DNA from: Deltaproteobacteria bacterium
Lineage (GTDB): Bacteria > Desulfobacterota > Binatia > Binatales > Binataceae
Assembly (NCBI GenBank): GCA_021794015.1
Contig: JAJYRQ010000004.1
Span: 72,901-104,900, forward strand
Reading direction: 5' to 3'
DNA: 32,000 nt
The notes beneath the pieces are model-generated. The model was not told the DNA's origin. It ran no database searches and saw only the letters and a list, made by a program, of their open reading frames with translations. Position numbers and translations under genes: made by a program. Positions 8,273 through 22,843 of this stretch are shown here, piece after piece (positions within the stretch are counted from its first letter, which is position 1; every line of letters starts with the position of its first letter).

Positions 8273-9223
8273 TCACACGCCCAGCGCCTTTGCCGCCAGA
8301 AAACTAACTGTCAGCAGCACGGCGAACTCCAGGTGGAGTTGCGCTTCGAGGTTAATTGCCGGGTGGAGCGCTGCGCCCTCGCTTGCGCGGCAAAGCCTAT
8401 GGACCTTAAGCGCGTGCGGCAGCGTTGCCAACACCACCAGGCCCGTAACGGGTACCGTCCGCGTCACCACCCCGGCGAGCACGGCGCCGTAGGCGGCGGC
8501 GTTAAAGCACGCCAACTCCCAAAACGCGCCTCGCCGGCCGAGAATTGTGGCCAAGGTGCGCTTGCCGTGGGTGCTGTCGCTGGCGATATCGCGCAGGTTG
8601 TTCACCTGCAGGATGCCCGATCCGAGAAAGCCCATCGAAAGCGATACCCAGACCGCAGCCGCGGAAAATTTAAGCGCCGTGACGTAATAGGCGCCCAGTA
8701 CGATGGCCGGTCCCAGAAAAAGAAACGACAGCAGATCGCCCAGCGCAAGGTAGCCCAGCGCCAGCGGCGCCCCGGTGTAAAAGTAGCCGGCGGCTACGCT
8801 CGGCACGCCGATGGCCAAGACCGGCCATCCGCATCGGTAGGCAAGCCAGAGGCCGATCGCCGAGCCCAGTGCAAAGGCGGCTACGCCTCCGGCCCAGACC
8901 TGTTCAGGGCGCAAGAAGCGGCGCTGGATGGCCAGGCTTGGTCCAAAATTCTCCACCGCCAGCACGTCGAAGGAGTCCACGCCGCTGACGAAATCGCTGT
9001 AATCGTTCACCAGGTTGGTCCCCGCCTGTATGGCGACCGCGCCGATTAGCGCCAGCACAAACCTCACCGGCGAGAAATGGCCGTGGTAGACGGCCGCCGC
9101 GGTTCCCACCAGCACCGCCCCCGAGGAGACGGTCAGCGTCCACGACCTGGCCGCTACGATCCAGGTCATCAGCTTGCCGGGCCTTCCCTGACTATCCTCC
9201 AAGATCGCTTCTGTCTGCGTCAT
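8273..9223 (-). CDS. menA: UbiA-superfamily prenyltransferase, MenA type (1,4-dihydroxy-2-naphthoate polyprenyltransferase-like)
   Basis: NLVNDYSDFVSGVD (NDYxDxxxGxD) and NNLRDIASDSTHGKRTLA (NNxRDxxxDxxxGKxTL). The N-terminus aligns with E. coli MenA (W...R..TL....A..VGTA.A...GHF.P). Polytopic and hydrophobic. Start uncertain: ATG at 9277, 9223 or 9169. Confidence 0.8.
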   Translation of the reverse strand: MTQTEAILEDSQGRPGKLMTWIVAARSWTLTVSSGAVLVGTAAAVYHGHFSPVRFVLALIGAVAIQAGTNLVNDYSDFVSGVDSFDVLAVENFGPSLAIQRRFLRPEQVWAGGVAAFALGSAIGLWLAYRCGWPVLAIGVPSVAAGYFYTGAPLALGYLALGDLLSFLFLGPAIVLGAYYVTALKFSAAAVWVSLSMGFLGSGILQVNNLRDIASDSTHGKRTLATILGRRGAFWELACFNAAAYGAVLAGVVTRTVPVTGLVVLATLPHALKVHRLCRASEGAALHPAINLEAQLHLEFAVLLTVSFLAAKALGV

Positions 9224-9424
9224 AAGCCCGCGTCCCCGCCATCTTGGCTCTGCGGTACCAGCCACCGGCGCGCCCATGGGCCACCGGTGGCAGAGCCGCT
9301 CGTCGCGGATGACGAAGGTTGAATCTAGCAGGCTCGCCGCCTGGGCTCCACATCTCCCGAGCTGCGGCGAGCTTACTGTCCGGCAGCGGCCGATGCCGGC
9401 GAGGTGCGGTAAAGAGGGCGGACG

Positions 9425-10216
9425 CTACGGCCCTGTGCTGAGAAACTGCTGTTGCTCGCCTTCCAGGACCAGACAGGTCAGAATCCCGCTTTCGTAGGCG
9501 CCGGTGTCGATCCCGATGCGATTGTGGCGTACGTCGGGAGCCGTGCTGATGCAATGCCCGTGCACCACGATGGCGCCGAAATCGGCTTGCGAGGTCACGA
9601 ACCGCTTGCCGATCCAGAGCAGGTCCCGGTCGCTCTGGGCGTCTATCGGGACGCCGGGGCGGACCCCGGCATGAACGAAAAGATAATCACCCTCGCGGTG
9701 GCGGACTTTGAGCGCTCGGAAGAACTGCAGGTGGGATGCCGGCATCTGGCTGGCGACCCGGGCGCGCAGCTCTGCCAGGGCTGCCGCGCTCTGGACCCCT
9801 GCGGGTGGTGTGGCGATCCCGTAGCTGGCCAGGGTGTCGCGCCCGCCGTAGGTGAGCCAATGGCCCCCCGCTTCGTCGTCGCCGTCCAGGAAGCGAAGCA
9901 GGAGGTCTTCGTGGTTGCCCTTGAGGGCGACCGTTTCGAAGCCGGCAAGGGGTTGTCGCACCAGGGTTTCGACCGCGCGGCAGGAGTCGGGACCGCGGTC
10001 GATGTAGTCGCCCAGATAGACCGCCACGCGGCGCACGGCCGTTGCCCGTCGGGCGTTGTCGCGGATCGCCGCGTGGATGCGGTCCAGCAGGTCGGCCCGC
10101 CCGTGAACGTCACCGATCACGTAAACGACGCATCCGGAAGGTACACGCCCGGCGGGCGCTCCCGGCCCCTCGCCCGCCGGCGGCAGACGAAAGGGAGGCG
10201 GAAAAGGCTCATTCAT
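9425..10216 (-). CDS. Calcineurin-like metallophosphoesterase (PPP family, PrpA/ApaH-like)
   Basis: Motifs VIGDVHGR, YLGDYIDRGP, LKGNHE and VHGH. Its ATG overlaps the ubiX stop by 8 nt (GCGGATGAATGAGCC). Confidence 0.8.
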   Translation of the reverse strand: MNEPFPPPFRLPPAGEGPGAPAGRVPSGCVVYVIGDVHGRADLLDRIHAAIRDNARRATAVRRVAVYLGDYIDRGPDSCRAVETLVRQPLAGFETVALKGNHEDLLLRFLDGDDEAGGHWLTYGGRDTLASYGIATPPAGVQSAAALAELRARVASQMPASHLQFFRALKVRHREGDYLFVHAGVRPGVPIDAQSDRDLLWIGKRFVTSQADFGAIVVHGHCISTAPDVRHNRIGIDTGAYESGILTCLVLEGEQQQFLSTGP

Positions 10217-10790
10217 CCGCCGGCTCCGGCCGTTCGCCCCAGCGGCGGAAAAGCGAGTGCTCGATGCCGAACTGGTCGAGCGCCTTGCCGATGGTCTGAT
10301 GGATGAGATCCAGGATCGTCAGGGGACGATGGTAAAAGGCGGGCACCGGCGGCAGAATGACCGCGCCCAGGTCCGCAGCCTCAGCCATAAGCTTCAGGTG
10401 GCCTTTGTGCAGGGGCGTTTCCCGCACCATCAGGACCAGCCGCCGGCGCTCCTTGAGCGTTACGTCGGCGGCACGCCCGACCAGATTTGCGGCCGCCGAG
10501 TTGGCGATCGCCGATAGGGTCTTGATACTGCACGGAGCCACGATCATACCCCGGGTAGGAAACGACCCGCTGGCGGGCGCGGCGCTGAGATCCTCGCTGT
10601 CATAGACCACGTCGGCCATGGCCTTGACTTCGGCCAGCGAGTAGGCGGTTTCGATCTTGAAGTTTCGCGCCGCCGCCTCGCTGATTATCAGGTGAGCCGG
10701 CGCGCCCAGCCTGCGCAGCGCCTTGAGCGTCTCGACGCCATAAATGACGCCCGAGGCGCCCGTGATGGCGACCAGCAGCGGCGCGGTCAC
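10209..10790 (-). CDS. ubiX: Flavin prenyltransferase UbiX (prFMN synthase)
   Basis: 193 aa. LVAITGASGVIYG, MIVAPCSIKTLSAIANS, AADVTLKERRRLVLMVRETPL, PPVPAFYHRP. The GTG start overlaps the upstream stop (GTGA). Confidence 0.92.
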   Translation of the reverse strand: MTAPLLVAITGASGVIYGVETLKALRRLGAPAHLIISEAAARNFKIETAYSLAEVKAMADVVYDSEDLSAAPASGSFPTRGMIVAPCSIKTLSAIANSAAANLVGRAADVTLKERRRLVLMVRETPLHKGHLKLMAEAADLGAVILPPVPAFYHRPLTILDLIHQTIGKALDQFGIEHSLFRRWGERPEPADE

Positions 10791-11188
10791 CGGCGCCTCT
10801 CTGCCTGCTTGAGTCTGCGTATCAGCTTATCGGTTACCTCGCGGCAGTGCATGATGACGGTGCCGAGCCTGCGGCGGTCCAGGCCGTCCCAGTGGACACC
10901 GGCGGCTACGACCACGTTGGTGTTAAGCGCTGCGGCCAACGCTTCGGCGGCCTGTTTGACCACGACGTCTTCCTTGTGGCCCGGGTAGGTCAGGACCGAG
11001 GAGGTGGCGCTGGTCTTCGCCGGGTCGGCCAAGCTTGGGCGAGGTTGAGCGGCGGCGACGGCGCCGATGTGCGGCCGGGTTCCGCCCCATATGAAAACCA
11101 GCAGGTCGGCGCCGATCCGGACTGCTTCGGCTTCGACGCGCAGCGTACGGGTGCTGCTGCGTAGCCGAAGACGCTCTACGGCCGCCAT
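10787..11188 (-). CDS. LpdD-like protein (putative prenylated-flavin chaperone or accessory subunit of UbiD enzymes)
   Basis: ADLLVFIWGGTRPHIGAVAAA ... TYPGHKEDVV ... VVAAGVHWDGL resembles, from memory, Lactobacillus plantarum LpdD (LLIVVTGGTNPHIGDV ... FPSHDGRFHKD ... TITAGIHVNQIT). It is translationally coupled to ubiX. I chose the ATG at 11188; the ORF extends to a TTG at 11257. Confidence 0.6.
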   Translation of the reverse strand: MAAVERLRLRSSTRTLRVEAEAVRIGADLLVFIWGGTRPHIGAVAAAQPRPSLADPAKTSATSSVLTYPGHKEDVVVKQAAEALAAALNTNVVVAAGVHWDGLDRRRLGTVIMHCREVTDKLIRRLKQAERRR

Positions 11189-11383
11189 GACTTGTCGCGC
11201 CGGCCAGCGCCGTGGTTTCGTTGCCGGCCGGCGACGCCCGTGCTCAAGCCGCACCAACGACGCCCGCCAACCCGCACCAGGGCGGGCGGTTTCCTGTCAC
11301 GCGCGGGCCTTTTGGCGTCTTGAACCAGGCTTTCGATGCTTGCGGCTAGAGCGTCGCGCCGCATCCGGTTGTCGGCCGACATC

Positions 11384-13063
11384 TCAGGTCTTGCTTGCCT
11401 TCAACGGGAACTCGGGGGAGTCTGCGGTTAGGCGGCTGTCGATTTGCTGTCGCAGCGCCTTTTTGTCGACCTTGCCCGAATCGCCCACCGTCGGCATCGA
11501 AGCTACCATCTCGAGCCGTTCTGGGAACTTATACCGGGCGATCTTTTTCTCGGCCAAAAAGCGGGTCATCGCTTCAAAGCTGAACGTCCGGCCCGGCCGC
11601 GTCACGACGCAAGCCGCGGCGCGCTCGCCGTACACCGGGTCGGGGATTGCGACCACGGCTACCGCGGCGACTGCGGGATGCTCGTTGAGCAGGCCCTCGA
11701 CCTCGGCCGGGTAGATGTTCTGCCCGCCCCGGATAATCACATCCTTCTTGCGTCCTAGCACCCACAGGCAGCCACGCTCCATCTTGACCACATCCTCGGT
11801 TGTGGTCCATCCCTCGGCGTCAAAGACCTGCGCCGTCAAGGCGGGATCACGGTAGTATCCGGCGGGAGCGTGTGGCCCACGTATCCAGAGCACGCCGGGC
11901 TCGCCGTCAGGCGCTGCCGTGCCGGCGTCGTCGAGCAGCCGCACCTGGTTGCCCGGCAGCGGGCGGCCCACGGTACGGCGGCGCAAATCAGCCGGATCGT
12001 TGACCTGGCAGCCGGAGACCGACCCGCGGTCTTGCGTGCCAAGGTCGCTGGTGATGACGGCACCGAGCCGCCGTTCCGCCTCTTCCGCTAACTGAGGCGA
12101 GAGATAGCCGCCGGCGCAGCGGATGAACCGCAGCGCTGATAGGTCGTAATCCTCGGGTTTGCTTTCCAGCATCCGCACCAGGTGCGTGGGCACGACCCCG
12201 ATGGCGGTGACTCTCTCCCGGGCCATCAACTCAAGCGCAGTTTGCGGATTGAACTCTTCGAGCATCACCGTTTTGGCGCCGACCAGCGGCGCAGCGAAGT
12301 AGGTCAGCGTCCCGGCGGCGCCGCCGGCGTGGGGCGCCACCGCCATGGTCACGTCGTCGGCGCGCAGTTGCCACAGCTCGACGCGCGCCTTCGAGGTGCA
12401 CAGCCGCGGCGCAATCGGCCATTCCACCAGCTTGGGGAGCCCGGTGGTGCCGCTGGTGGTGGTCAGCAGCGCCACATCCCAAAACGGGTCCAGCCGCCGG
12501 CGCGCCAGCGTCGCCGGCTCGGCCTTGTCCAGGTAGTCGCGGGCCGCTCTGACCAGTGAGCGCACGCCAGCCGTGTCGCCAGCCGGAAGCTCCGCGTCGA
12601 AAAGGTAAATTCGCGTCAGGCTGGGGAACCTGCCCATCAGCTCCCGGTACATGGCCAGGTAGTCGAAGTCGCGGTAGCGGCGCGGGATGACCGCCATGCT
12701 GGCCTGGGTCTGCTCGACCATATATTCCAGCTCGGCCTGGCGCAGGTAGGGGTAGGCGGTAAGGGAAATCAGGCCAGCACGCTCGCAGGCGATGCGTGCC
12801 AGGAAGCCGTAGACGCTGTTGGGCGCCTGGACGATCACGCGGGCGTCGCGCGGCAGCCCGTCATCGATCCAGGCCGCCGCGATGGCGTCGACGAGGCGCG
12901 CGGCCTCGGCCCAGGTGACCCGGTAGTTGGAATCGACGAGCGCTTCCCGGTCCGGCCGCTCGGCCGCATTGCGTTGGTAGAAGTCGTAGAAAGTCTCGTT
13001 GGTCCAGTGGCCTTGGCGTACGAACTCGTCCACCATCGGGGGAAGGTAACGGATCGGCCTCAT
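11384..13063 (-). CDS. AMP-forming aryl/acyl-CoA ligase (class I adenylate-forming enzyme)
   Basis: 559 aa. AMP-binding core TTSGTTGLPKLV. The EntE/DhbE-like aryl-acid ligase N-terminus (YR..G.W....F.D...RNA...PDREALVD) and C-terminal motifs (IIRGGQNIYPAEVE, GKVDKKALR) are present. Confidence 0.85.
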   Translation of the reverse strand: MRPIRYLPPMVDEFVRQGHWTNETFYDFYQRNAAERPDREALVDSNYRVTWAEAARLVDAIAAAWIDDGLPRDARVIVQAPNSVYGFLARIACERAGLISLTAYPYLRQAELEYMVEQTQASMAVIPRRYRDFDYLAMYRELMGRFPSLTRIYLFDAELPAGDTAGVRSLVRAARDYLDKAEPATLARRRLDPFWDVALLTTTSGTTGLPKLVEWPIAPRLCTSKARVELWQLRADDVTMAVAPHAGGAAGTLTYFAAPLVGAKTVMLEEFNPQTALELMARERVTAIGVVPTHLVRMLESKPEDYDLSALRFIRCAGGYLSPQLAEEAERRLGAVITSDLGTQDRGSVSGCQVNDPADLRRRTVGRPLPGNQVRLLDDAGTAAPDGEPGVLWIRGPHAPAGYYRDPALTAQVFDAEGWTTTEDVVKMERGCLWVLGRKKDVIIRGGQNIYPAEVEGLLNEHPAVAAVAVVAIPDPVYGERAAACVVTRPGRTFSFEAMTRFLAEKKIARYKFPERLEMVASMPTVGDSGKVDKKALRQQIDSRLTADSPEFPLKASKT

Positions 13064-13115
13064 GGGGAATCGCCTTACTGCGAGCGGTCCTGGCTGCCGT
13101 TCGGCCCCGGCAAGG

Positions 13116-14612
13116 TCAAGTGCCCGGCTTTTTCTGGGTCGAAGGAGCGGCCGGGCGGGTCAGGCGGTCGATCATCTGCGCCACCGGACTTGAGCCGGCG
13201 AAGCCGTACTCATTCCAGCGTTCGGAGACCTTTTGCAGCACGGTCCGGTCCATGAAAATTTCCCGGGGCTTTTTCTTCCACTCAAAGGGCGTGCAGGCGT
13301 CGAGCAGGATGCGGCTGGTTATTTCGCGCGCCTCGATGGGCAGTCCGGGGTCGAGCGGGGTGGAGCGGCCGCGGTCGATAATCTGGGCCGAGCGCTTGGG
13401 ATCGAAGCGGGTTGCCAGCGCCCACATCACGCGGTCCCAGTCGTCGGCGGCGACGTCGTGGTCCACCACAATTACGCCCTTGACGCCGTAGTGCCCGGTG
13501 GTGCTCGCGATCACCGCGTTGGCCACGTGGTTGGAATGCCCGGGGTACATCTGGCGCACCGACACGATCACCCAGTAGCGTCCGCAGGCCTCGGGCGGGA
13601 TGTAGACGCTCTGGATGCCCGGTACGCGCATGGTTTGCAGGTCGGACCAGAGCGTGGCGGTGCGGTTGAGCGACTGGATCATGTGAATGTCGTTGATCGG
13701 CTTACCCACGGTCGTGGCCCAGAAAATGGGATTATTGCGGTGTAGGATGCGCTGAACCCTGAGCGCCGGCTTCGGCCACTCCTCGTCGGCGTTGCCGGAA
13801 TAATAGCCGGTGTACTCGCCGAACGGCCCCTCGGGGTGCAGGTCCTTCGGGTCGATGTAGCCCTCAAGAATAATCTCGGCCGTGGCCGGCAGCTTGAGCC
13901 CGGTAAGATCGGACTCGAACACCGGCACCGGCGCCTGGCGCAAGGCTCCGCAGACGTCGTACTCGTCGGTTTGGGCGCTGACCAGCGTCGAGCTGGCCAG
14001 GAACAGGACCGGATCGCAGCCGATGACGGCCGCGGCCGGCATCACCTCGCCCCGTGCCTCGTGTTGCTTGAGCATCATGTCCCCGTGCTTGCCCTTGATT
14101 ATCTGGCAGCCGGCAAGGTCTTTGCCCAGTATCTGCATCCGGTAGGTGCCCAGGTTGGTCCAGCCGGTTTCCGGGTCTTTGGTCACCAGGTAGACTGCGG
14201 TGCCGATGAAGCGGCCGCCGTCCTCCGGGTAAAACCAGGGAGCGGGAAACATGTTGAGATCGACGCGGCTTCCCGTGAGCACGTTCTCCATTACCGGCGG
14301 CTGCTCGAATAACCGCGGCTTGATCAACTGGCGCGTGGTCAGCTCCATCCAGCGCTTGGAGAGCTGGCTCATCGAGAGAGCGGGGTCCTGCTCAAGACAG
14401 ATGGCGAGGCGCTGCGGCGTGGTAAAGGCGCTGGTCAGGACCGGAATCCGGTACCCTTTGACATTGCTATAGAGGAGCGCGGGCCCCTTCTGCTCTTCGT
14501 TCACCTTGGAGACGTGGCAGAGTTCCAGGTTCCAGTCGACTTCCGTTTTGACCTCGTGCAACACGCCGCGTTCCCTGCACGCGGCGATGAAATCTCTTAG
14601 GTCGCGGATCAT
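13116..14612 (-). CDS. UbiD-family prFMN-dependent (de)carboxylase
   Basis: 498 aa. MIRDLRDFIAACRERGVLHEVKTEVDWNLE.. is a typical UbiD N-terminus, and length and overall pattern fit. GGAGG lies 7 nt upstream of the ATG. Confidence 0.9.
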   Translation of the reverse strand: MIRDLRDFIAACRERGVLHEVKTEVDWNLELCHVSKVNEEQKGPALLYSNVKGYRIPVLTSAFTTPQRLAICLEQDPALSMSQLSKRWMELTTRQLIKPRLFEQPPVMENVLTGSRVDLNMFPAPWFYPEDGGRFIGTAVYLVTKDPETGWTNLGTYRMQILGKDLAGCQIIKGKHGDMMLKQHEARGEVMPAAAVIGCDPVLFLASSTLVSAQTDEYDVCGALRQAPVPVFESDLTGLKLPATAEIILEGYIDPKDLHPEGPFGEYTGYYSGNADEEWPKPALRVQRILHRNNPIFWATTVGKPINDIHMIQSLNRTATLWSDLQTMRVPGIQSVYIPPEACGRYWVIVSVRQMYPGHSNHVANAVIASTTGHYGVKGVIVVDHDVAADDWDRVMWALATRFDPKRSAQIIDRGRSTPLDPGLPIEAREITSRILLDACTPFEWKKKPREIFMDRTVLQKVSERWNEYGFAGSSPVAQMIDRLTRPAAPSTQKKPGT

Positions 14613-14659
14613 CTTCCTACCTCCGGTAAGCTGCTATTGGCCGGCCGCCGTGCTCCGCC

Positions 14660-15739
14660 TCAGCCCAGCCGCTGGCCGGCCAGGATCGTTGAAAGGATCA
14701 GGTCCATGGGCGACGCGCCCGCAGGCGAGGCCGGCACGCGCGCCTTGTTGCTCCAGACGGTCTCGGGGCGCGCCTGCAGGATGAAGACATCGGTTGCTCC
14801 CGCAGTCCCCCGTTCCACCGCCCATTCGAGGTCGAGCGGGTAGCCGTAATGCTGTTCGAGGCGCTTGCCGATGCCCGCCAGCTCGACGATTTCCTCGTCG
14901 CGCAGTGAGGGCGCCTCCTGCAGCTCGGCGGCCAGCTCGAAGCGCCGCGAAACCTGGCTTTCGCGGTCGACCGTATAGTAAACCTGCTTGCGCGAAACGA
15001 CGCGGCGGAGAATCTCCAGGCCGACCTTGTTGACCATGAATTCGTCGGGGGTAACTTCGCCGCCTACCACCGATTCGCCGAAACCGAAGTTGGCGTTGAT
15101 AAGGATGGTCGACGGGTCGCCGTTGGAGGGATTTAGGGTGAACATCACTCCGGCCGCCGATGAATCGACCATCTTCTGCACGCCGACGCAGATCGCCACC
15201 TTGTCGTGGTCGAAGCCCATCCGAGCGCGGTAGGCGAGCGCCCGCGCGCCGAAAAGACTCGCAAAACATCGCCGCACGTACTGCAGCACCTGGCCGGCGC
15301 CACGAATCCAGAGAAAGGAATCCTGTTGGCCGGCGAAGCTGGCGTTGGGCAGGTCCTCGGCCGTGGCGCTCGAGCGTACTGCAACCGCAACCGCCGCATC
15401 GCCGCAACGTTCGCCCAGTCGGCGGTAGAACTCGGCGATCTCGTCTTCCAGTTGTGCGGTGAATGTTGCGCTTTCAAGATGGGCGCGGATTTCGGCGCTC
15501 GCCGCATCCAGCGCTTGCGGGTCGCGGTAGTCGAGCTGTTCGAGGTGCGAAGCGAGAAGGTGCTGCGCGCCGCTCCCGGCCAGAAACTGCCGATAACCCG
15601 CAACGGTTACCGCAAAGCCCGGCGGGACCAGCGCTCCGGCGCGCATCAACTCGCCCAGCGAGGCGCACTTGCCGCCCACCAGCGCGGTCGAACCTTGGCT
15701 GCAGTCGTGCAGCCAGCAGACCAGCGGACTCGCCTTCAT
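14660..15739 (-). CDS. PEP-synthase-like ATP-binding subunit (PPDK_N/ATP-grasp), phenylphosphate synthase beta (PpsB)-like
   Basis: LVGGKCASLGEL..AG..VPPGFAVT is the hallmark N-terminus of the pyruvate-phosphate-dikinase/PEP-synthase nucleotide-binding domain. At ~360 aa (~40 kDa) it lacks a His swivel domain. I prefer the ATG at 15739, preceded by GAGGGAAG, over 15763. Confidence 0.8.
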   Translation of the reverse strand: MKASPLVCWLHDCSQGSTALVGGKCASLGELMRAGALVPPGFAVTVAGYRQFLAGSGAQHLLASHLEQLDYRDPQALDAASAEIRAHLESATFTAQLEDEIAEFYRRLGERCGDAAVAVAVRSSATAEDLPNASFAGQQDSFLWIRGAGQVLQYVRRCFASLFGARALAYRARMGFDHDKVAICVGVQKMVDSSAAGVMFTLNPSNGDPSTILINANFGFGESVVGGEVTPDEFMVNKVGLEILRRVVSRKQVYYTVDRESQVSRRFELAAELQEAPSLRDEEIVELAGIGKRLEQHYGYPLDLEWAVERGTAGATDVFILQARPETVWSNKARVPASPAGASPMDLILSTILAGQRLG

Positions 15740-15821
15740 CGTGCTTCCCTCGACTCCTCGCAACCCAGCGCCAGGGCTTGGTAGGCTGAGGGCGCAGGCG
15801 CTACCGCGCCCTGACGCCGGC

Positions 15822-17669
15822 CTATGGAACGACCGTGATGGTGCCCTCGGAACCGTCGACGCGAATCGTCGTGCCGCTTTTTATCACCGAGGTTGCCGAC
15901 CCGGTGCCGACCACGGCCGGCACACCGTATTCACGGCAGACGATCGCCGCGTGGCACATGACGCCGCCGACGTCGGTGACGCAGGCCTTGATCTTGACGA
16001 ACGCCGGCGCCCACGACGGCGAGGTGGTGGGAGCCACCAGGATTTCTCCTTCCTGGAGTTCGCCGATCTCCTCGACGGAGCGGCAGACGCGAGCCTTTCC
16101 TTCGACCACGCCGGGACTTCCGGCAAAGCCGGTAAGCCGGGGGATGCTGGCTCCGTCGCCCGCCTCGCGCAGCTTCGCCCAGGCGTTGAGCGATTCGTTG
16201 GTTATGCCCCAGAGCACCACGGTAAAAGGCTCCTGGATGATCTCCGGCTTGGTGCCGACGGCCGGCGGCGGCCTCCAGGCGCGAAACTTCTCCATCACGC
16301 CCTTGCGCCACTGGATTTCCTGGGGCCACACCTTGGGACCGCGCGGCTTCACGCCCGTTGCCCAGGCGGTCACCAGGTCCCACAGCGCGTCCTTGATCTC
16401 GGCGCGTTTGAGGTACCAGATGTCCTCGACATCGTGGATAAACCCGTGCTCCTTCATGATTGCGGCGACTTCGCGCAGCTTGTTCCAAAACTCCGAATGG
16501 AACCAGTGCTCGACGTAGAAGAGGTGGTTCTCAACGTAGGGGAAGACAGTCCTGGAGGTGCCGAGGAGCTGATCGAAGGTGGCGCGATCCTGCTCGCTCT
16601 TGATAAGGGCCCGGTATTCGGCGGTGATGCGGTCGCGCTCCGCGCGTATCTGTTCTACCGGACGCTCGATCGCTACGCCTTGGCGAAGCTTGTCAAGGTA
16701 GGTGCGAATCGACGCAAGCGGCAGGTCGAGATCATCATTCCAGCACCTGTCATGGTGGTACCAGCCGGTGCCGGCGGAGATGTAGAACCACGGATCGCGC
16801 ACCTCGGCCAGCGCGGCCAGCCATTTCCGCCCGGCCTCGGTGCCCTTTAGCGCCGTTTCGACCTGGGCGAAGCCGCCGCTTGAACTCAACACGCCGTCAA
16901 CGCCAAGTTCGAGCGCCTTGCGTGCCAGCTTCTTCAGCTCGTCGTCCGGCCGATACATGATGGTCTCGATGCCGGCCACCATCTGCGCCAGCCGCAGACT
17001 CGGAACGTCCGGGAACAACTTGCGGCAAAAATCCAGGAAGGTCACATAGGCCGCGTAGCCGAGATTGAGAAACTCGAAGTGGTACTGCCAGCAGCGAATC
17101 CCCAGGTCGATCAGCTGATCGTAGGCGCGCAGCAGATGGTAGCCCTTGGATTCACCCACGCCTTCGAACACCACGCGGCTGTCCTCGAGCGCCGGCAAAG
17201 GCTCGATCTTGAGCGCGCGCAACTCACCGATGGTTGCCTTGAGCTTGGTCTCCCATTTGGCCACCAGGCGGTCCCAGTTCTGGTAATAATAGCCGGCCCG
17301 TTCCATGAAGTGGGCGACCCGAGCTTCGATTTCCTTCGGATCGGTGACCGGCACCGGGCTGATGTAGAGGTAGCCGTTGACGATTCGGTGGTCTACGCCG
17401 TAGACCGGCGGAATGGCGAAGATGCGGGTGTTGTATTGCGAGAGGGCGAGGAACCAGGCTTCGTCCCAGATGATGTCGAAAGGATACATCGGTTCGGGGT
17501 AGTGTAGCCCGTCGTAAAACCAGAACATCTTCTCTTCGTAGGCGCGCCGCTCCGGGTCGTCCGTCACGAAACGATAGTGGTAGGGGTAGATTCGCTCCCA
17601 ACCCTCGGTTCCCGGGATGGCTTCGACGGCATGGGGAAGCTGGAACTCTGCCTTGGATTTGGCGCTCAT
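15822..17669 (-). CDS. PEP-synthase-like phosphohistidine subunit, phenylphosphate synthase alpha (PpsA)-like
   Basis: 615 aa (~70 kDa). The C-terminal PEP-utilising mobile domain reads GSPGVVEGKARV....GEILVAPTTSPSWAPAF.K..A.VTDVGGVMCHAAIVCREYGVPAVVG (catalytic His). The large N-terminal domain is unrelated to the PEP/pyruvate-binding domain. Confidence 0.8.
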   Translation of the reverse strand: MSAKSKAEFQLPHAVEAIPGTEGWERIYPYHYRFVTDDPERRAYEEKMFWFYDGLHYPEPMYPFDIIWDEAWFLALSQYNTRIFAIPPVYGVDHRIVNGYLYISPVPVTDPKEIEARVAHFMERAGYYYQNWDRLVAKWETKLKATIGELRALKIEPLPALEDSRVVFEGVGESKGYHLLRAYDQLIDLGIRCWQYHFEFLNLGYAAYVTFLDFCRKLFPDVPSLRLAQMVAGIETIMYRPDDELKKLARKALELGVDGVLSSSGGFAQVETALKGTEAGRKWLAALAEVRDPWFYISAGTGWYHHDRCWNDDLDLPLASIRTYLDKLRQGVAIERPVEQIRAERDRITAEYRALIKSEQDRATFDQLLGTSRTVFPYVENHLFYVEHWFHSEFWNKLREVAAIMKEHGFIHDVEDIWYLKRAEIKDALWDLVTAWATGVKPRGPKVWPQEIQWRKGVMEKFRAWRPPPAVGTKPEIIQEPFTVVLWGITNESLNAWAKLREAGDGASIPRLTGFAGSPGVVEGKARVCRSVEEIGELQEGEILVAPTTSPSWAPAFVKIKACVTDVGGVMCHAAIVCREYGVPAVVGTGSATSVIKSGTTIRVDGSEGTITVVP

Positions 17670-17770
17670 GGTGTTCCTCCCGTGCGATGCGGCTGATGCG
17701 CACCCGCTTTGCGTTTCACCCGCGGCCTTTCTTCGGTCCTTCCGCGCAAGGCAATCTGAAGCGGCGTATG

Positions 17771-17786
17771 AGCAAGGGTTATGCCA
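17771..17786 (-). promoter_or_regulatory. Sigma-54 (-24/-12) promoter of the ppsA-like cluster
   Basis: The minus strand reads TTGGCAT-AACCC-TTGCT, matching TGGCAC-N5-TTGCW with exact GG/GC spacing. It lies ~100 nt upstream of the ATG at 17669, and a sigma-54 activator gene is divergent. Confidence 0.65.
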
Positions 17787-17911
17787 ATAGTCTTGCGCTC
17801 AGGCCTGGTTAACCGGCGTTAGCCGGCTTCAGGGTCGCCTGCCGCAGGGATAAATCGCCAAGGACAGGCGCAGCGCGAAGCGTCGGCGCGAGAGGCTGCG
17901 CGAGGCAATTG

Positions 17912-17942
17912 ATGATTTGGTCAAATCATTGGTGAAATCGTT
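17912..17942. promoter_or_regulatory. Candidate activator-binding UAS: 18-bp palindrome plus tandem 12-mers
   Basis: ATGATTTG-GT-CAAATCAT (17912-17929) is a perfect 8+2+8 palindrome. It overlaps the tandem 12-mers GGTCAAATCATT and GGTGAAATCGTT (17919-17942). The element is AT-rich in a GC-rich background and lies ~130-160 bp upstream of the -24/-12 element. Confidence 0.45.
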
Positions 17943-18018
17943 TGATCCGAGCCGGCCCAGGGTGCGAATATGGTCAAGCAATCCTCCCGGTGTTCGCGGC
18001 TTTTGGAGGGCCAGGGCA

Positions 18019-19812
18019 ATGAATCGACCGCAGTTGGCAGGTATCGATTGGATGTCACACGGGACTCCCTGTCCTTTGGCTGTTGCAGCGACCGAATGCC
18101 CGCTTGGCCTCAGCACGCTCGACGCCATTGTGCCGGACATGAGGGACCTGGTCGTGCGCCTGCGCTTTGCGCCGGAAGAGGGCGAGATCCGGCTCGACGC
18201 TGAGCGAGTAGCCATAATGCACCTGTCGACGTTTGCCGCGCTGCGCCGGGAACTTATCGATCGGCTGGGCGTGCCGCAGGCGCGCGGCCTGTTCATGTCG
18301 ATGGGGTATGCCAGCGGGATGCGCGACGCCGGGATGGCGCGTGCCACGCACGCAGGCGACACGGTGCGCAACGCGTTTGTGGTGGGTCTTCAACTGCGAA
18401 GGCTTCAGGGCTTCGCGGCCGCCAAGGTTGAGCGGCTGGAGATCGATGTTGCCGGCGGGTGCTTCGAGGCCGAGTTCGCCGCCTCGGGCTCTTGTGAAGT
18501 CGAGGCCCACCTGACGGTTTACGGCAGTGCCGCGGCTCCGGCGTGCTGGATGCTGGTCGGGTATGCGTCGGGTTATGCCAGCGCGTTTCTGGGTCGTGCC
18601 GTCTTGTTCAAAGAGACCGAGTGCCGAGCGACAGGGGCTGTTGAATGCCGCATCGTGGGCAAGCCGGTGGGTCAATGGAGCGACGAGGAGGACCTGCCTG
18701 CGCTACAGCCGGCGGCAGTTGCCGGCCAGATGCTCGCGCAGCGCTCCTGGCCCGCGTTCGACCCCCGAGCGACCCCTTTGAGCGAGGAGATGGTTGGGCA
18801 GTCGCCCGAATTTGTCGCCGCCTGCCGGCTTTTGCAAAGGGTTGCCGGCACTGAGGCGACGGTACTGCTGCAAGGGGAAACCGGTGTTGGCAAGGAGATG
18901 TTCGCCCGCGCCCTGCACCGCATGAGCAAGCGCGCCCCCGGTCCCTTCGTTGCCGTCAACTGCGCCGCAATTCCGGAAAATCTCATTGAAGCCGAGTTGT
19001 TCGGCGTGGAGAAGGGCGCCTTCACGGGCGCAGCATATTCGCGGCCGGGCCGGTTCGAACGTGCCGACACCGGCACTCTGTTTCTGGACGAGGTGAGCAG
19101 TCTGCCGCTGGCCGCCCAGGCCAAGCTTTTGCGCGCCATCCAGGAGCGCGAGATCGAGCGCGTAGGCGACGTCAAAGCGCGCAAAGTGGACGTGCGGATC
19201 GTGGCCGCAACCAGCGTGAACCTGGCAAACGCAGTCTCAGCCGCGCTGTTCCGCGACGATTTGTATTTTCGGCTAAGTGTGTTCCCCTTGCACATACCAC
19301 CGCTGCGGGCGCGGCGCGAGGATATCCCGCTGCTAGTGCAGCGCTTCGCCGGCCGCTATGCCCGGCTCTACGGGCGCGAGATCGGCGGCCTCACGGCGGG
19401 CGCGCTCGAACGGCTGCTGAACTACGACTATCCGGGGAATATTCGGGAGTTGCAGAACATGGTCGAACGGGCGGTCATCCTTTGCGACAACGGTCGCCCA
19501 CTCGACGTTCAACATTTTCCCCCGTGCGCAGACCAACTGCGGGCGCCGGCAACGGCTGGCTCGGTGGGTGCTGCAGCGCTCGCCTCCCGCGCCAGCACCG
19601 AGGTGCCGGGCGATTGGTCCCCGCTGGTCGAACGCTTTTTCAGCCGCCGCCTGACTTTTCGCGAATTCGAGGAGGCGCTGCTCGCGGAGGCGCTACAGCG
19701 GAGCAATGGTAATCTCTCGGCAGCCGCGCGAATGCTCGGCTTGACCCGCCCGCAGGTTGCTTACCGATTCAAGAAGCGCCAGCGCAGGTCGCTCGAATCG
19801 AGCTGCCGCTGA
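18019..19812 (+). CDS. Sigma-54-dependent transcriptional activator, XylR/DmpR (NtrC) family, with an aromatic-effector-type sensing domain
   Basis: The N-terminal region resembles XylR_N/V4R (RLRFAPEEGEIRLDAERVAIMHLSTFAALRREL...GYASG). AAA+ core: GETGVGKEMFARALH, EKGAFTGA, GTLFLDEV. C-terminal Fis-type HTH: NLSAAARMLGLTRPQVAYRFKK. The ATG at 18019 follows GGAGGG by 8 nt. The ORF-track start at 17917 would cover the palindromic operator. Confidence 0.9.
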   Translation: MNRPQLAGIDWMSHGTPCPLAVAATECPLGLSTLDAIVPDMRDLVVRLRFAPEEGEIRLDAERVAIMHLSTFAALRRELIDRLGVPQARGLFMSMGYASGMRDAGMARATHAGDTVRNAFVVGLQLRRLQGFAAAKVERLEIDVAGGCFEAEFAASGSCEVEAHLTVYGSAAAPACWMLVGYASGYASAFLGRAVLFKETECRATGAVECRIVGKPVGQWSDEEDLPALQPAAVAGQMLAQRSWPAFDPRATPLSEEMVGQSPEFVAACRLLQRVAGTEATVLLQGETGVGKEMFARALHRMSKRAPGPFVAVNCAAIPENLIEAELFGVEKGAFTGAAYSRPGRFERADTGTLFLDEVSSLPLAAQAKLLRAIQEREIERVGDVKARKVDVRIVAATSVNLANAVSAALFRDDLYFRLSVFPLHIPPLRARREDIPLLVQRFAGRYARLYGREIGGLTAGALERLLNYDYPGNIRELQNMVERAVILCDNGRPLDVQHFPPCADQLRAPATAGSVGAAALASRASTEVPGDWSPLVERFFSRRLTFREFEEALLAEALQRSNGNLSAAARMLGLTRPQVAYRFKKRQRRSLESSCR

Positions 19813-19913: not shown

Positions 19914-20130
19914 TGGCCAGGTCAGGGCGAGTTTTGACTTAGGCCGACGCAGGCCGCGGCCCCTGGAAACCTTGTCGGCAAAATCAGCGGCCCTCCCGTC
20001 CCCGCCGCCTTGGGCCTCGCCGGCTATCCGCTACGGCGACCCGTCCGCCGCTGCGGCCAGGACCGGCTAGCAGCCCAGCAGGGAGGGGTAACGAGCCCTT
20101 CTAATGTCGGGGCTTGCCAAAATAAGGTAC

Positions 20131-20158
20131 TTTACAAAGGTCGCTCCGGGGCTATACT
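20131..20158 (+). promoter_or_regulatory. Candidate sigma-70 promoter of the sdh operon (TTTACA-16 nt-TATACT)
   Basis: TTTACA (20131-20136) and TATACT (20153-20158) sit in an AT-richer patch ~55 nt upstream of the proposed GTG at 20211. Confidence 0.4.
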
Positions 20159-20210
20159 TGGGGCGGCATCCCGGGGGTGCGCCAAGTCTAGTCGAGAGGA
20201 GTGTGCAGGA

Positions 20211-21026
20211 GTGTCCGCAGCGGCTATCTCTCGTTCGCAGGTTGGAGTTGATGGGGTTCGGCTGGGGTTGACCCGGCGGCGCGACCCGTGGTGGGTGCAG
20301 CCGGGGGCGGTTTTTGTCGGGCTTGCGGCTTTCGTTGTGTATGTGACGTGGGCGGGATTGCAGGGGCGCTACTATCGTTTCGGTCCTTATCTCTCGCCCT
20401 TTTACTCGCCTGAATTGTGGGGATCGCCGGAGGCCTGGTTCGGTGCGGCGCCGCCGTGGTGGTACCCGCAGTGGCTTAGGTTTTCGCCCGCGGTCTTCAT
20501 TCTATGGATTCCCGCCGGGTTCCGGCTGACCTGCTACTACAATCGCGGTGCTTACTATAAGGCGTTTTGGGCGGATCCACCAAACTGCGCGGTCGGCGAG
20601 CCGCGCAAAAGCTACTGGGGCGAGAACTACTTCCCCCTCTTGCTGCAAAACATTCACCGCTACTTCATGTACCTGGCGGTTCTGCTCGTGCTCGTGCTGC
20701 TCGATGACGTATGGCATGCGCTATGGTTCACGAACGCCGCCGGTCACCTGCGCTTCGGGATCGGGGTGGGGACGCTGGTGATCACCCTCGATGTTGCTTT
20801 GGTGGCCGCTTACACCTTCGGCTGCCATTCGCTGCGCCATGTCTGCGGCGGTCGGCTTGACTGCCTGGCGGGGCGTCCGGTGCGGGCCGCGCTCTATGAT
20901 TGCACCAGCGGGTTGAACCGTAGGCATATGGCTTGGTTCTGGGTCAGTTTAGCCTGGGTGGGGTTTAGCGACCTTTACGTGCGGCTGTGTGCCATGGGTG
21001 TTTGGACCGACTGGAGAATTCTCTGA
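20211..21026 (+). CDS. Succinate dehydrogenase/fumarate reductase membrane anchor (single large subunit, mycobacterial Sdh1 SdhC-like)
   Basis: Polytopic Trp/Tyr-rich membrane protein directly upstream of sdhA, with stop and start overlapping (TGATG). I chose the GTG at 20211, preceded by GAGAGGAG. The upstream part of ORF 20010.. is Arg-rich and does not look like protein. Conserved-looking motif GCHSLRHVCGG. Confidence 0.65.
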   Translation: MSAAAISRSQVGVDGVRLGLTRRRDPWWVQPGAVFVGLAAFVVYVTWAGLQGRYYRFGPYLSPFYSPELWGSPEAWFGAAPPWWYPQWLRFSPAVFILWIPAGFRLTCYYNRGAYYKAFWADPPNCAVGEPRKSYWGENYFPLLLQNIHRYFMYLAVLLVLVLLDDVWHALWFTNAAGHLRFGIGVGTLVITLDVALVAAYTFGCHSLRHVCGGRLDCLAGRPVRAALYDCTSGLNRRHMAWFWVSLAWVGFSDLYVRLCAMGVWTDWRIL

Positions 21027-22843
21027 TGCTGGCCTACGAGGCGATCCGGCACGATGTTCTGGTGATCGGCGCGGGCGGCGCGGGCCTGCGGGCGGCGATC
21101 GAGGCCTCGGCCGAAGGCGCCTCCGTCGGCGTGGTATGCAAGTCGCTGCTCGGCAAGGCGCACACCGTCATGGCCGAGGGCGGTATCGCCGCGGCGATGG
21201 CCAACGTGGATGAGCGCGACAACTGGAGGGTCCACTTTTCCGACACGATGCGCGGCGGCCAGTACGTCAACAACTGGCGGATGGCCGAGCTTCATGCCAA
21301 AGAAGCTCCGGAGCGGATTCGTGAACTGGAGGCCTGGGGCGCGCTCTTCGACCGCACCGGCGACGGCCGCATCCTGCAGCGCCACTTCGGCGGCCACCGC
21401 TACGCCCGCCTGGTTCACGTCGGCGACCGCACCGGTCTCGAGATGATCCGCACGCTACAAGACCACGGCATCCACCGCGGTATCGAGTTCTACATGGAAT
21501 TTACGGTTTGCGCGCTCTTGACCGAAGGCAACCGGGTGGTGGGCGCGGTGGCCTACAGCCGCGAAAAGGGGACCTTTTTCGTCTTCCAGGCCAAGGCCGT
21601 GGTTTTGGCCACCGGGGGTATCGGACGTTCCTACAGGATTACCAGCAATAGCTGGGAGTGTACCGGTGACGGGTTGGCGCTGGCCTACCGCGCCGGCGCC
21701 GAGCTGGCCGACATGGAGTTTGTGCAGTTTCATCCCACCGGGATGGTCTGGCCGCCGAGCGTTGCCGGTCTTTTGGTGACCGAAAGCGTGCGCGGTGAGG
21801 GCGGCGTTCTGCGCAACAACCAGGGGCGGCGCTTCATGTTCGACGACATTCCCGAGGCTTACCGCGCCCAGACCGCCGACAACGAGGAAGAGGGGTGGCG
21901 CTACACCCAGGGCGACAGGAACGCCCGGCGGCCGCCCGAGTTGGTGACCCGCGACCACGTCGCCCGCTGCATCGTGCGCGAAATCAAGGAAGGCCGCGGC
22001 AGCCCGCACGGCGGTGTGTTTCTCGATATCGCGTGGATCCGGGAGAAAATCCCCAACTCCGCGGAACATATCAAGCGCAAGCTGCCTAGCATGTACGACC
22101 AGTTCCTCAAGCTGGCCGGGATCGACATCACCAAGGTCCCGATGGAGGTCGGCCCCACCACCCACTACATGATGGGCGGCATCCGGGTGGACGGCGATTC
22201 CCAGGTGTCCTCGGTCGAGGGGCTGTTCGCGGCCGGTGAATGCGCTGCCGGGCTGCACGGCGCAAATCGTCTGGGCGGCAACTCTCTCTCCGACCTGCTG
22301 GTCTTCGGCCGGCGCGCCGGACTGTACGCGGCCCAGTTCGCCCGTCAGGCTCAGTGGGTCGAGGCCGACCAGAACCAGGTGCACGCTGTCATCGCGCATG
22401 CTGTCGAGCCGTTCGAGCGCGCCGCGGCGCACCCGGCCGACTCGCCTTACCGCATCCTGGAGGAGCTCCGGGAACTGATGCAGAACCTGGTCGGCATCGT
22501 GCGCACGGGCGAGGAAATGACCCAGGCGCTCGACGGCCTGGCCAAGTTCAAGGAGCGCGCCCTGCGGGTGGGCGTTGTGGGCAATCGCTTCTACAACCCC
22601 GGCTGGCACACGTCACTCGACCTGGACAATCAGCTCATCGTTTCCGAGGCGGTCTGCCGGGCCGCGCTCACCCGCTCGGAAAGCCGCGGCGCGCACTATC
22701 GGCTCGACTACCCGAACAAGGACGTGCGTTGGGGACATATCAACCTGGTCGTACGCCGGGCAGACGATGGCATGGCGGTCGTCGAGCGGCCGCTGCCGGA
22801 GATGCCGCAGGAACTCAAGGCCATTATCGAGGAGATGAAGTGA
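21026..22843 (+). CDS. sdhA: Succinate dehydrogenase/fumarate reductase flavoprotein subunit
   Basis: DVLVIGAGGAGLRAA (FAD fold), FVQFHPTG (covalent-FAD His), HYMMGGI, GECA..GLHGANRLGGNSL, ESRGAHYR. Confidence 0.93.
   Translation: MLAYEAIRHDVLVIGAGGAGLRAAIEASAEGASVGVVCKSLLGKAHTVMAEGGIAAAMANVDERDNWRVHFSDTMRGGQYVNNWRMAELHAKEAPERIRELEAWGALFDRTGDGRILQRHFGGHRYARLVHVGDRTGLEMIRTLQDHGIHRGIEFYMEFTVCALLTEGNRVVGAVAYSREKGTFFVFQAKAVVLATGGIGRSYRITSNSWECTGDGLALAYRAGAELADMEFVQFHPTGMVWPPSVAGLLVTESVRGEGGVLRNNQGRRFMFDDIPEAYRAQTADNEEEGWRYTQGDRNARRPPELVTRDHVARCIVREIKEGRGSPHGGVFLDIAWIREKIPNSAEHIKRKLPSMYDQFLKLAGIDITKVPMEVGPTTHYMMGGIRVDGDSQVSSVEGLFAAGECAAGLHGANRLGGNSLSDLLVFGRRAGLYAAQFARQAQWVEADQNQVHAVIAHAVEPFERAAAHPADSPYRILEELRELMQNLVGIVRTGEEMTQALDGLAKFKERALRVGVVGNRFYNPGWHTSLDLDNQLIVSEAVCRAALTRSESRGAHYRLDYPNKDVRWGHINLVVRRADDGMAVVERPLPEMPQELKAIIEEMK

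Follow-up and report, generated by a model that had tools for sequence, protein, structure and literature searches.

A compact operon of the ppsA-ppsB-ppcB type, with its own prenylated-flavin supply genes, as a candidate for phenol activation in a Binataceae bacterium

We examined a 32 kb stretch of contig JAJYRQ010000004.1 (assembly GCA_021794015.1, positions 72,901 to 104,900) from a Deltaproteobacteria bacterium of the family Binataceae, hereafter the window, in which an operon and its divergent regulator, together spanning 9425-19812, are candidates for the activation of phenol by way of phenylphosphate. A preliminary description of this DNA had listed seven minus-strand genes, a divergent activator and a -24/-12 promoter. 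All of these are present with the motifs it quoted, as seven minus-strand open reading frames (ORFs; 9425-10216, 10209-10790, 10787-11257, 11384-13063, 13116-14612, 14660-15763 and 15822-17669) and one on the plus strand (17917-19812), and the Pfam and NCBIfam profile searches by which domains were assigned to every protein back each assignment. Start sites were re-set from public gene calls on identical contigs, which moved the starts of LpdD to 11188 (133 aa) and PpsB to 15739 (359 aa), and the ATG of the regulator to 18019 (597 aa), its ORF being open back to 17917. From the promoter onwards, the operon encodes a PpsA-like phenylphosphate synthase alpha subunit, the phosphohistidine carrier (15822-17669, 615 aa), a PpsB-like ATP-binding subunit (14660-15739), a PpcB-type UbiD (de)carboxylase, the sole UbiD of the window (13116-14612, 498 aa), an ANL-family aryl-acid CoA ligase that is a putative 4-hydroxybenzoate-CoA ligase (11384-13063, 559 aa, AMP-binding and AMP-binding_C domains), a predicted LpdD-family chaperone of reduced prenylated flavin mononucleotide (prFMNH2; 10787-11188), a UbiX flavin prenyltransferase (10209-10790, 193 aa) and a PPP-family metallophosphatase (9425-10216, 263 aa, Metallophos domain). 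Gaps of 82, 47, 52 and 195 bp are followed by overlaps of 4 bp between lpdD and the UbiX start and 8 bp between the UbiX stop and the phosphatase gene. Searches with tblastn (E <= 1e-3) found no homologue of PpsC, PpcA, PpcC, PpcD, UPF0261, riboflavin kinase or Nudix hydrolase in the 32 kb window, which confirms the earlier statement that the locus has a single UbiD and no PpsC, gamma or HAD-type delta subunit.

Both kinase subunits resemble phenylphosphate synthase. PpsA has a C-terminal PEP-utilizers domain as its sole Pfam domain (PF00391, residues 539-609, motif GGVMCHAAIVCRE), scores 1101 bits on NF006152 (cutoff 723), and is 66.8% identical to PpsA of Aromatoleum toluvorans over the C-terminal 401 aa, 67-69% identical to the proteins of Geobacter/Geotalea loci (69% for Geobacter argillaceus) and 78% identical to that of locus L028 in the survey described below. 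PpsB is a PPDK_N-only protein (PF01326, E = 8.5e-109), 56.8% identical to its Aromatoleum counterpart. Matches to phosphoenolpyruvate (PEP) synthase or rifampicin phosphotransferase are confined to single domains, and the pair groups with Aromatoleum PpsA/PpsB, not with PEP synthase or antibiotic phosphotransferases. Together they have the properties of the alpha (~70 kDa, mobile His domain) and beta (~40 kDa, ATP-binding only) subunits of phenylphosphate synthase; for the gamma subunit, neither Aromatoleum PpsC nor the CBS protein of survey locus L088 had a tblastn match in the window. The gamma subunit of Thauera does no more than stimulate the reaction (PMC6114531). The experimentally supported PpsA of Desulfatiglans anilini is only 42% identical to the Thauera enzyme (PMC6114531, PMC7500099), and the aniline kinase PasA shares no more than 27% identity with PpsA from D. 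anilini (PMC7500099).

The carboxylase gene encodes all three of the UbiD_N, UbiD and UbiD_C domains. It scores 589 bits on the phenyl_P_beta model TIGR02724 (cutoff 469), compared with 196 bits for PpcA, and stays far below the cutoffs of the menaquinone type (283 vs 496), E. coli UbiD (238 vs 788) and VdcC (297 vs 650). Identity is 55.5% to Aromatoleum PpcB and 30% to PpcA (the Aromatoleum PpcA query matches this same gene, there being no other UbiD), 72-79% to PpcB of Geobacter and Burkholderiales loci, 72-74% to Geobacter and Geotalea loci (73-74% to those of Geobacter argillaceus and Geotalea toluenoxydans), and 72-85% to single-UbiD loci overall. Judged by model score and identity, the protein is a PpcB (phenylphosphate carboxylase beta) equivalog.

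Residues N153, R158, H176, E217, E261 and E266 are kept in the window protein and show little or no variation across 83 PpcB-type sequences, with a spacing nearly identical to that of Fdc1 N168, R173, H191, E233, E277 and E282, of which R173, E277 and E282 are catalytic (PMC8379154). At the positions of His176 and Glu217, Aromatoleum PpcB (L087:3191-4612) has Arg and Asp, and Aromatoleum PpcA (L087:5182-6642) lacks the His, whereas PpcB sequences of the single type keep His176 in 81 of 83 cases and Glu217 in all 83. In view of these differences, one or both large subunits of the heteromeric phenylphosphate carboxylase may carry a degenerate cofactor site, and the residues kept by the single-UbiD type fit a conventional, possibly self-sufficient UbiD.

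To place the operon among its relatives, one genome per species was scanned with a PpcB alignment, and the 80 loci recovered (59-80% identity) were analysed by tblastn and ORF clustering. A core of a divergent regulator, PpsA, PpsB, UbiD and, further along, UbiX recurs among them (PpsA in 63, PpsB in 69 and UbiX in 64 of the 80), and dozens of genomes keep this order of genes. Only 4-5 of the 80 loci have another UbiD, one has a gene resembling PpcD and none has one resembling PpcC, which makes the lone PpcB-type UbiD the norm. The single-UbiD layout is also already published, the Geobacter metallireducens cluster having only a ppcB homologue (PMC6114531, PMC1924859), and the phrase "non-canonical subunit set" used in the preliminary description does not hold.

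What usually stands next to ppcB is different from the window. A UPF0261 gene directly follows ppcB in 72 of the 80 loci (e.g., L033:2866-4128 and L088:7364-8635), and it is usually followed in turn by a CBS-pair protein (56 loci, plus 3 with a PpsC-like match). UPF0261 is the family of MarK, for which a 2025 paper showed ATP-dependent kinase activity on aromatic (phenolic) compounds and a conserved site that binds phenol, with no mention of a link to phenylphosphate carboxylase. Going by this neighbourhood, ppcB-only carboxylases may have their missing partner in the UPF0261 protein. An ANL ligase after ppcB was found in 19 of the 80 genome loci, and LpdD immediately precedes UbiX in 10 of the 80. 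Identical contigs excepted, no other surveyed locus has the exact order of all seven genes; since each single adjacency is conserved in other loci, the locus is best described as a modular reshuffle.

Nearest in architecture are L170, L015, L025, L095 and L114 (uncultured Burkholderiales, metagenome contigs), which have the order PpsA-PpsB-UbiD-ligase-X-UbiX-phosphatase and, like the window, no UPF0261 (the ligase after ppcB was recorded in L095, L114 and L170). Their UbiD proteins are 76-85% and their ligases 69-71% identical to those of the window; position X is occupied by a CBS protein in these contigs and by LpdD in the window. The closest relative, L170 (UbiD 85% identical), has PpsA-PpsB-UbiD-ligase-CBS-UbiX-phosphatase beside MarR and genes resembling 4-hydroxybenzoyl-CoA reductase (Hcr). 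The L170 contig has further genes of note on both sides of the operon (L170:1-1945 and L170:17325-21488): 5-10 kb upstream there are another UbiD, an ORF with weak likeness to Phenyl_P_gamma and a ligase of the PaaK type, and downstream there are MarR and three Hcr-like molybdenum hydroxylase genes. The L170 regulator is of the MEDS/BTAD kind, not a sigma-54 activator.

Immediately downstream of the operon and on the same strand, a UbiA prenyltransferase gene (8273-9277, minus) passes the TIGR00751 menA model and would encode a MenA-like 1,4-dihydroxy-2-naphthoate prenyltransferase. Its position raises the possibility that UbiD, UbiX and UbiA form a quinone-biosynthesis module, or a hydroxyarylic-acid decarboxylase module for detoxification, with the PEP-synthase-like pair as a mere neighbour; UbiX and LpdD likewise serve gallate and hydroxyarylic acid decarboxylases (PMC10865409). 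We consider this extremely improbable. The UbiD protein falls under the menaquinone, E. coli UbiD and VdcC cutoffs and over that of PpcB, so it does not belong to the quinone-type enzymes. No homologue of the MenA-like gene was found in any of the 80 related loci, PpsA/PpsB are almost always adjacent, and the operon is under an aromatic-sensing sigma-54 activator. The quinone reading was rejected on the model scores and the absence of the MenA-like gene from the 80 loci. An intrinsic terminator scan found no clear terminator in the ~150-200 bp between the phosphatase gene and the MenA-like gene, which is probably outside the operon.

The LpdD protein matches PF21758 with 122.9 bits (cutoff 27, E = 6.7e-36) and the Lactobacillus plantarum LpdD structures 8pzh, 8p4w and 8po5 (E = 1e-4), with the GGT-PHIG motif conserved. 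Work of 2024 on L. plantarum LpdD showed that it binds prFMNH2 and helps to activate apo-UbiD, and according to the authors LpdD genes rarely adjoin UbiD genes (PMC10865409). The preliminary description had seen a hybrid with an LpdD-type accessory protein; a prFMNH2 chaperone that precedes UbiX in 10 of 80 related loci does not support a hybrid subunit borrowed from gallate decarboxylase. UbiX scores 243.7 bits on NF004685 (cutoff 188) and is 56% identical to Aromatoleum UbiX. The simplest reading, by analogy with the L. plantarum proteins, is that LpdD and UbiX would act as a module for synthesis and delivery of the prenylated flavin cofactor (prFMN). At the position that separates dimethylallyl monophosphate (DMAP) from dimethylallyl pyrophosphate (DMAPP) specificity, AnUbiX has Q203 and is DMAPP-specific, PaUbiX has F181 and is DMAP-specific, and O157 UbiX has H164 (PMC6541611). 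The window protein has Gln165 at the position of AnUbiX Q203, which suggests that it uses DMAPP. Across the 64 pps-linked UbiX proteins this residue is always Gln or His, never Phe, whether or not a phosphatase is present. In clusters of Aromatoleum, Rhodocyclaceae and Georgfuchsia, UbiX is followed by a Nudix hydrolase (L087:8338-10837, L030, L031, L171); in Aromatoleum L087 a CTP-dependent riboflavin kinase lies between the two, and in L087, L030 and L031 a PPP metallophosphatase comes next. The set of UbiX, riboflavin kinase, Nudix hydrolase and phosphatase looks like an extended flavin/prFMN supply module.

The metallophosphatase of the window keeps the three PPP motifs GDxHG, GDxxDRG and GNHE intact (as GDVHG, GDYIDRG and GNHE). 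The nearest folds to its AlphaFold2 model (predicted local distance difference test 85.7) are RLPH2, lambda phosphatase, an ALPH/ApaH-like protein, the PnkP phosphatase domain, ApaH and a Shewanella tyrosine phosphatase, with 5vjv, 1g5b and 2qjc as the best Foldseek matches (probability 1.00). Ten of the 80 genome loci, L088/L089 and several metagenome contigs have such a phosphatase after UbiX, and at 10 of 80 it is dispensable for most PpcB-type systems. In a simple neighbour-joining tree without support values, 19 UbiX/pps-linked phosphatases split cleanly from 26 clearly unlinked homologues; it therefore appears that phenol clusters recruited a dedicated subclade of the phosphatase. The idea that the family is always linked to UbiX was rejected, since most metagenomic homologues at 46-56% identity have no UbiX, UbiD or Pps within 8 kb, and these unlinked homologues have no conserved neighbour at all.

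What this phosphatase does bears directly on the carboxylation step. If it were a functional analogue of PpcD, standing in for the HAD-type delta subunit, the operon would encode a minimal two-component carboxylase in which phenylphosphate is cleaved at or near the UbiD active site to give phenolate, and PpcA, PpcC, PpcD, UPF0261 and CBS proteins are not needed. Consistent with such a role are the intact PPP motifs, the presence of aryl-phosphate (phosphotyrosine) phosphatases (RLPH2 and the Shewanella enzyme) as well as lambda phosphatase among the nearest folds, the dedicated pps-linked clade, the absence of any other phosphatase, UPF0261 or CBS gene from the window, and a complete canonical UbiD cofactor site, as expected of a self-sufficient homo-oligomer. 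However, a 57.6% identical orthologue coexists with PpcD in the pps-ppc cluster of A. toluvorans, and the phosphatase also coexists with UPF0261 and CBS proteins in L018, L023, L026, L088 and others; it always follows UbiX, never UbiD, and is found in so few loci. We therefore regard a PpcD analogue as rather unlikely. A second proposal, that the phosphatase supplies UbiX with DMAP made from DMAPP, is weakened by Gln165 and by the Gln or His of the 64 pps-linked UbiX proteins. The enzyme is probably neither a DMAP supplier nor a replacement for PpcD, and our best guess, taking the structural model into account, is a pathway-dedicated, translationally coupled accessory that would act on an aryl phosphate or a phospho-enzyme species.

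The ligase reaches no NCBIfam equivalog cutoff, its best models being cyclohexanecarboxylate-CoA ligase (303 vs 792) and 2,3-dihydroxybenzoate (DHB)-AMP ligase, and its best PDB matches are salicylate- and DHB-AMP ligases, with benzoate-CoA ligase structures at only ~125 bits. Many unnamed homologues are 66-72% identical, several of them on contigs with PpcB-type UbiD genes. A salicylate- or DHB-type adenylase, which would imply ortho-carboxylation, was rejected: the ortho-hydroxyl-binding residues N235, Y236 and S240 of DhbE are replaced by G, A and T. The Georgfuchsia cluster, like that of L170, is linked to Hcr-like genes, and the assignment as a 4-hydroxybenzoate-CoA ligase is contextual, as it rests on the position after ppcB and on the Hcr-like genes near the L170 and Georgfuchsia operons.

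Upstream of the operon, TGGCATaacccTTGCT at 17771-17786 (minus strand) is the sole match to the sigma-54 consensus TGGCAYN5TTGCW in the window, where 0.03 are expected from shuffled sequence, and this -24/-12 element lies ~100 bp upstream of ppsA. At 17914-17924 (minus strand) lies the sole exact copy of TTGANCAAATC in the window, which forms the palindrome TGATTTGACCAAATCA; three degenerate copies accompany it within 64 bp, and the four together (17914-17977) are placed 130-190 bp upstream of the -24/-12 element. TTGANCAAATC is a consensus of the XylR literature, and on that footing the four copies are candidate upstream activator sites and a lead only.

The divergent regulator (18019-19812, plus strand) has the domain order XylR_N, V4R, Sigma54_activat, AAA_lid_14 and HTH_8, which fits activators of the MopR/DmpR/PoxR/PheR type. 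Its sensor domain (18019-18780) matches those of PoxR, CapR and MopR with E = 3e-47 to 5e-40, and its CECC zinc site (Cys/Glu/Cys/Cys) is intact; on the NCBIfam MobR model the protein scores 505 bits (cutoff 999). Together with the sole -24/-12 match, these domains uphold the proposed sigma-54/XylR-type control, and PheR control of pps-ppc has been demonstrated in Aromatoleum aromaticum (PMC10715001). The sensor pocket is where the window departs from these proteins. In MopR, His106 and Trp134 anchor the phenolic hydroxyl (PMC10715001); both are kept in PoxR, CapR and 33 of 41 regulator ORFs (40 from related loci plus that of the window), whereas the window protein has Arg and Ala at these positions. 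The Arg variant is common to a small regulator subclade (L028, L036, L054, L058 and L073), whose members stand beside otherwise ordinary pps-ppc operons.

This pocket is a reason to consider that the chemistry is the same sequence of phosphorylation, carboxylation and CoA ligation while the substrate or inducer is not phenol but some different hydroxy- or amino-aromatic (for example, catechol, hydroquinone, a cresol or aniline), or that the regulator senses an intermediate of the pathway, for instance phenylphosphate or 4-hydroxybenzoate. The ligase, of an uncharacterised ANL subfamily nearest to aryl-acid adenylating enzymes, points the same way, and alkylphenols, hydroxyphenylethanones and aniline are among the substrates to which PpsAB-like kinases have diversified (PMC9618137, PMC7500099). 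In contrast, PpsA is 67-78% identical to the proteins of Aromatoleum and of loci with His/Trp-type regulators, and only 28% identical to that of the aniline-type L076. UbiD identity is, if anything, higher to Burkholderiales loci of the His/Trp type (79%) than to Arg-type loci (72-76%), and the ligase is without the ortho-hydroxyl-binding residues of DhbE. The enzymes of Arg-type and His-type loci are thus not split by identity, and phenol is therefore kept as the likely substrate with the inducer flagged as uncertain; overall, we judge a non-phenol substrate or inducer to be unlikely.

Among known systems, the operon is close to those of Geobacter. In the G. metallireducens locus (Gmet_2100-2102) and other Geobacter/Geotalea loci, as in the window, ppsA-ppsB-ppcB includes a lone UbiD of the PpcB type, ppcA, ppcC and ppcD are missing, the XylR-type sigma-54 regulator is divergent, and UbiX lies downstream. 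These loci differ in having UPF0261 and CBS genes between ppcB and ubiX, where the window has the ANL ligase and LpdD; moreover, the window adds the PPP phosphatase, and its regulator has Arg/Ala instead of His/Trp. The phe cluster of D. anilini comprises ppsA, ppsB, ppcB, a gene for 4-hydroxybenzoate-CoA ligase and genes for 4-hydroxybenzoyl-CoA reductase, with ppcA, ppcD and ppsC elsewhere and no ppcC (PMC6114531). It thus joins ppsA, ppsB and ppcB to a CoA ligase gene as the window does, and likewise holds none of ppcA, ppcD, ppsC and ppcC; unlike the 559-aa DhbE/AliA-like ANL enzyme of the window, its ligase is PaaK-like (~50 kDa), and the reductase genes of that cluster have no counterpart here within about 40 kb. 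With PpsABC and PpcABCD of Thauera aromatica and Aromatoleum, which are under PheR-type sigma-54 control (PMC10715001), the window has the pathway logic in common. The A. toluvorans cluster (L087) runs ppsA-ppsB-ppsC-ppcB-ppcD-ppcA-ppcC-UbiD-UbiX-riboflavin kinase-Nudix-metallophosphatase; by contrast, the window is without PpsC, PpcA, PpcC, PpcD, a third UbiD, riboflavin kinase and Nudix hydrolase, and its UbiD has His176/Glu217 where Aromatoleum PpcB has Arg/Asp. With LpdB, LpdC and LpdD of L. plantarum only the cofactor-maturation pair is in common, an LpdD-family gene adjoining that of UbiX (LpdB) with GGT-PHIG conserved: the window UbiD is PpcB-type, not LpdC/AroY (AroY ~110-120 bits vs 589), and its reaction is predicted to run towards carboxylation, not decarboxylation. 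By these comparisons, the locus is a streamlined addition to the known ppsAB-ppcB family, neither a hybrid of two systems nor a new kind, distinguished by 1) the lack of UPF0261 and CBS genes, 2) an uncharacterised ANL ligase and 3) the Arg/Ala pocket of its regulator; the first and third of these had escaped the preliminary description.

The kinase-carboxylase-ligase logic first proposed is upheld by the Pfam and NCBIfam domains and models, and the function we think probable, reading it from sequence, is activation of phenol, or of a very close phenolic, through phenylphosphate to 4-hydroxybenzoyl-CoA by an operon of the Geobacter/Desulfatiglans ppsA-ppsB-ppcB type with its own prFMN supply genes. 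In such a pathway, the PheR/DmpR-like activator would bind an aromatic effector and fire the sigma-54 promoter. Given the 57-67% identity to the Aromatoleum enzymes, PpsB is expected to move the beta,gamma-diphosphoryl group of ATP to the His of PpsA, which would then phosphorylate phenol to phenylphosphate with release of AMP and Pi. UbiX would make prFMNH2, and LpdD would hold it and hand it to apo-UbiD. The PpcB-type UbiD, with its full set of Mn2+/prFMN and Glu-Arg-Glu residues, would carboxylate the ring para to the oxygen, the phosphate ester being cleaved during the reaction to yield 4-hydroxybenzoate. Finally, the ANL ligase, by its position, would form 4-hydroxybenzoyl-CoA for a reductase encoded elsewhere.

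Several points weigh against this function. For ppcB-only clusters, phenylphosphate carboxylase activity has never been demonstrated in Geobacter or D. anilini extracts, and the aniline reaction of D. anilini in vitro required two PpcB paralogues (PMC6114531, PMC7500099). The UPF0261 and CBS genes typical of its relatives are missing from the window, so that other parts of the genome may encode essential partners. Within the window and 10 kb past either end, searches for hcr, bcr and bam genes found none. The ligase belongs to an uncharacterised ANL subfamily closer to DHB/salicylate-AMP and cyclohexanecarboxylate-CoA ligases than to known 4-hydroxybenzoate-CoA ligases, and the inducer may be a compound other than phenol, as the regulator pocket is without the His and Trp that anchor it. 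Two weaker details are the phosphatase tree, for want of support values, and the presumed Mn ligands, which are mapped from Fdc1 N168, H191 and E233 by matching residue spacing. A bolder reading combines several of the features above into a self-sufficient minimal phenylphosphate carboxylase, in which a homo-oligomeric PpcB-type UbiD is matured by UbiX and LpdD, the PPP phosphatase, in place of PpcD or of UPF0261 and CBS proteins, cleaves the ester and the Arg/Ala regulator senses not free phenol but, for instance, phenylphosphate or 4-hydroxybenzoate; we hold this combination to be quite improbable.

The surroundings of the operon comprise an Sdh/Frd-like operon on one side and, on the other, the MenA-like gene, a lipoprotein gene and an isc cluster. 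The Sdh/Frd-like trio beside the regulator (20010-23592, plus strand) encodes a 271-aa membrane protein with no Pfam match, a flavoprotein and an Fe-S subunit, and its link to the operon is not evident. The 613-aa predicted lipoprotein (6257-8098, minus strand) has a faint GNA1162-like match and an internal tandem duplication, its halves having in common such long motifs as FLPE(Y/F)G...HGRKT(L/I)LDR(I/M)(L/I)ETDP and RIAVLPF. Within the operon, the 195-bp gap between the ligase and LpdD was considered as a place for a hidden small PpcC-like gene. This was rejected: the 68-aa ORF there (11176-11382, minus strand, with an Arg/Gly-rich tail) has no conserved homologue in any fetched locus and is probably spurious.

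The survey leaves two wider leads for the family, namely the almost universal association of PpcB-type UbiD genes with a MarK-family (UPF0261) protein, and the link between UbiX and one subclade of PPP phosphatases in phenol clusters, the classical Aromatoleum one included. The operon itself packs a kinase, a single UbiD, a ligase, UbiX, a prFMN chaperone and a dedicated phosphatase into ~8 kb. This compact candidate set makes a convenient defined construct for the heterologous reconstitution of a single-UbiD phenylphosphate carboxylase, and it would allow us to ask whether earlier in vitro attempts wanted LpdD-assisted cofactor loading.

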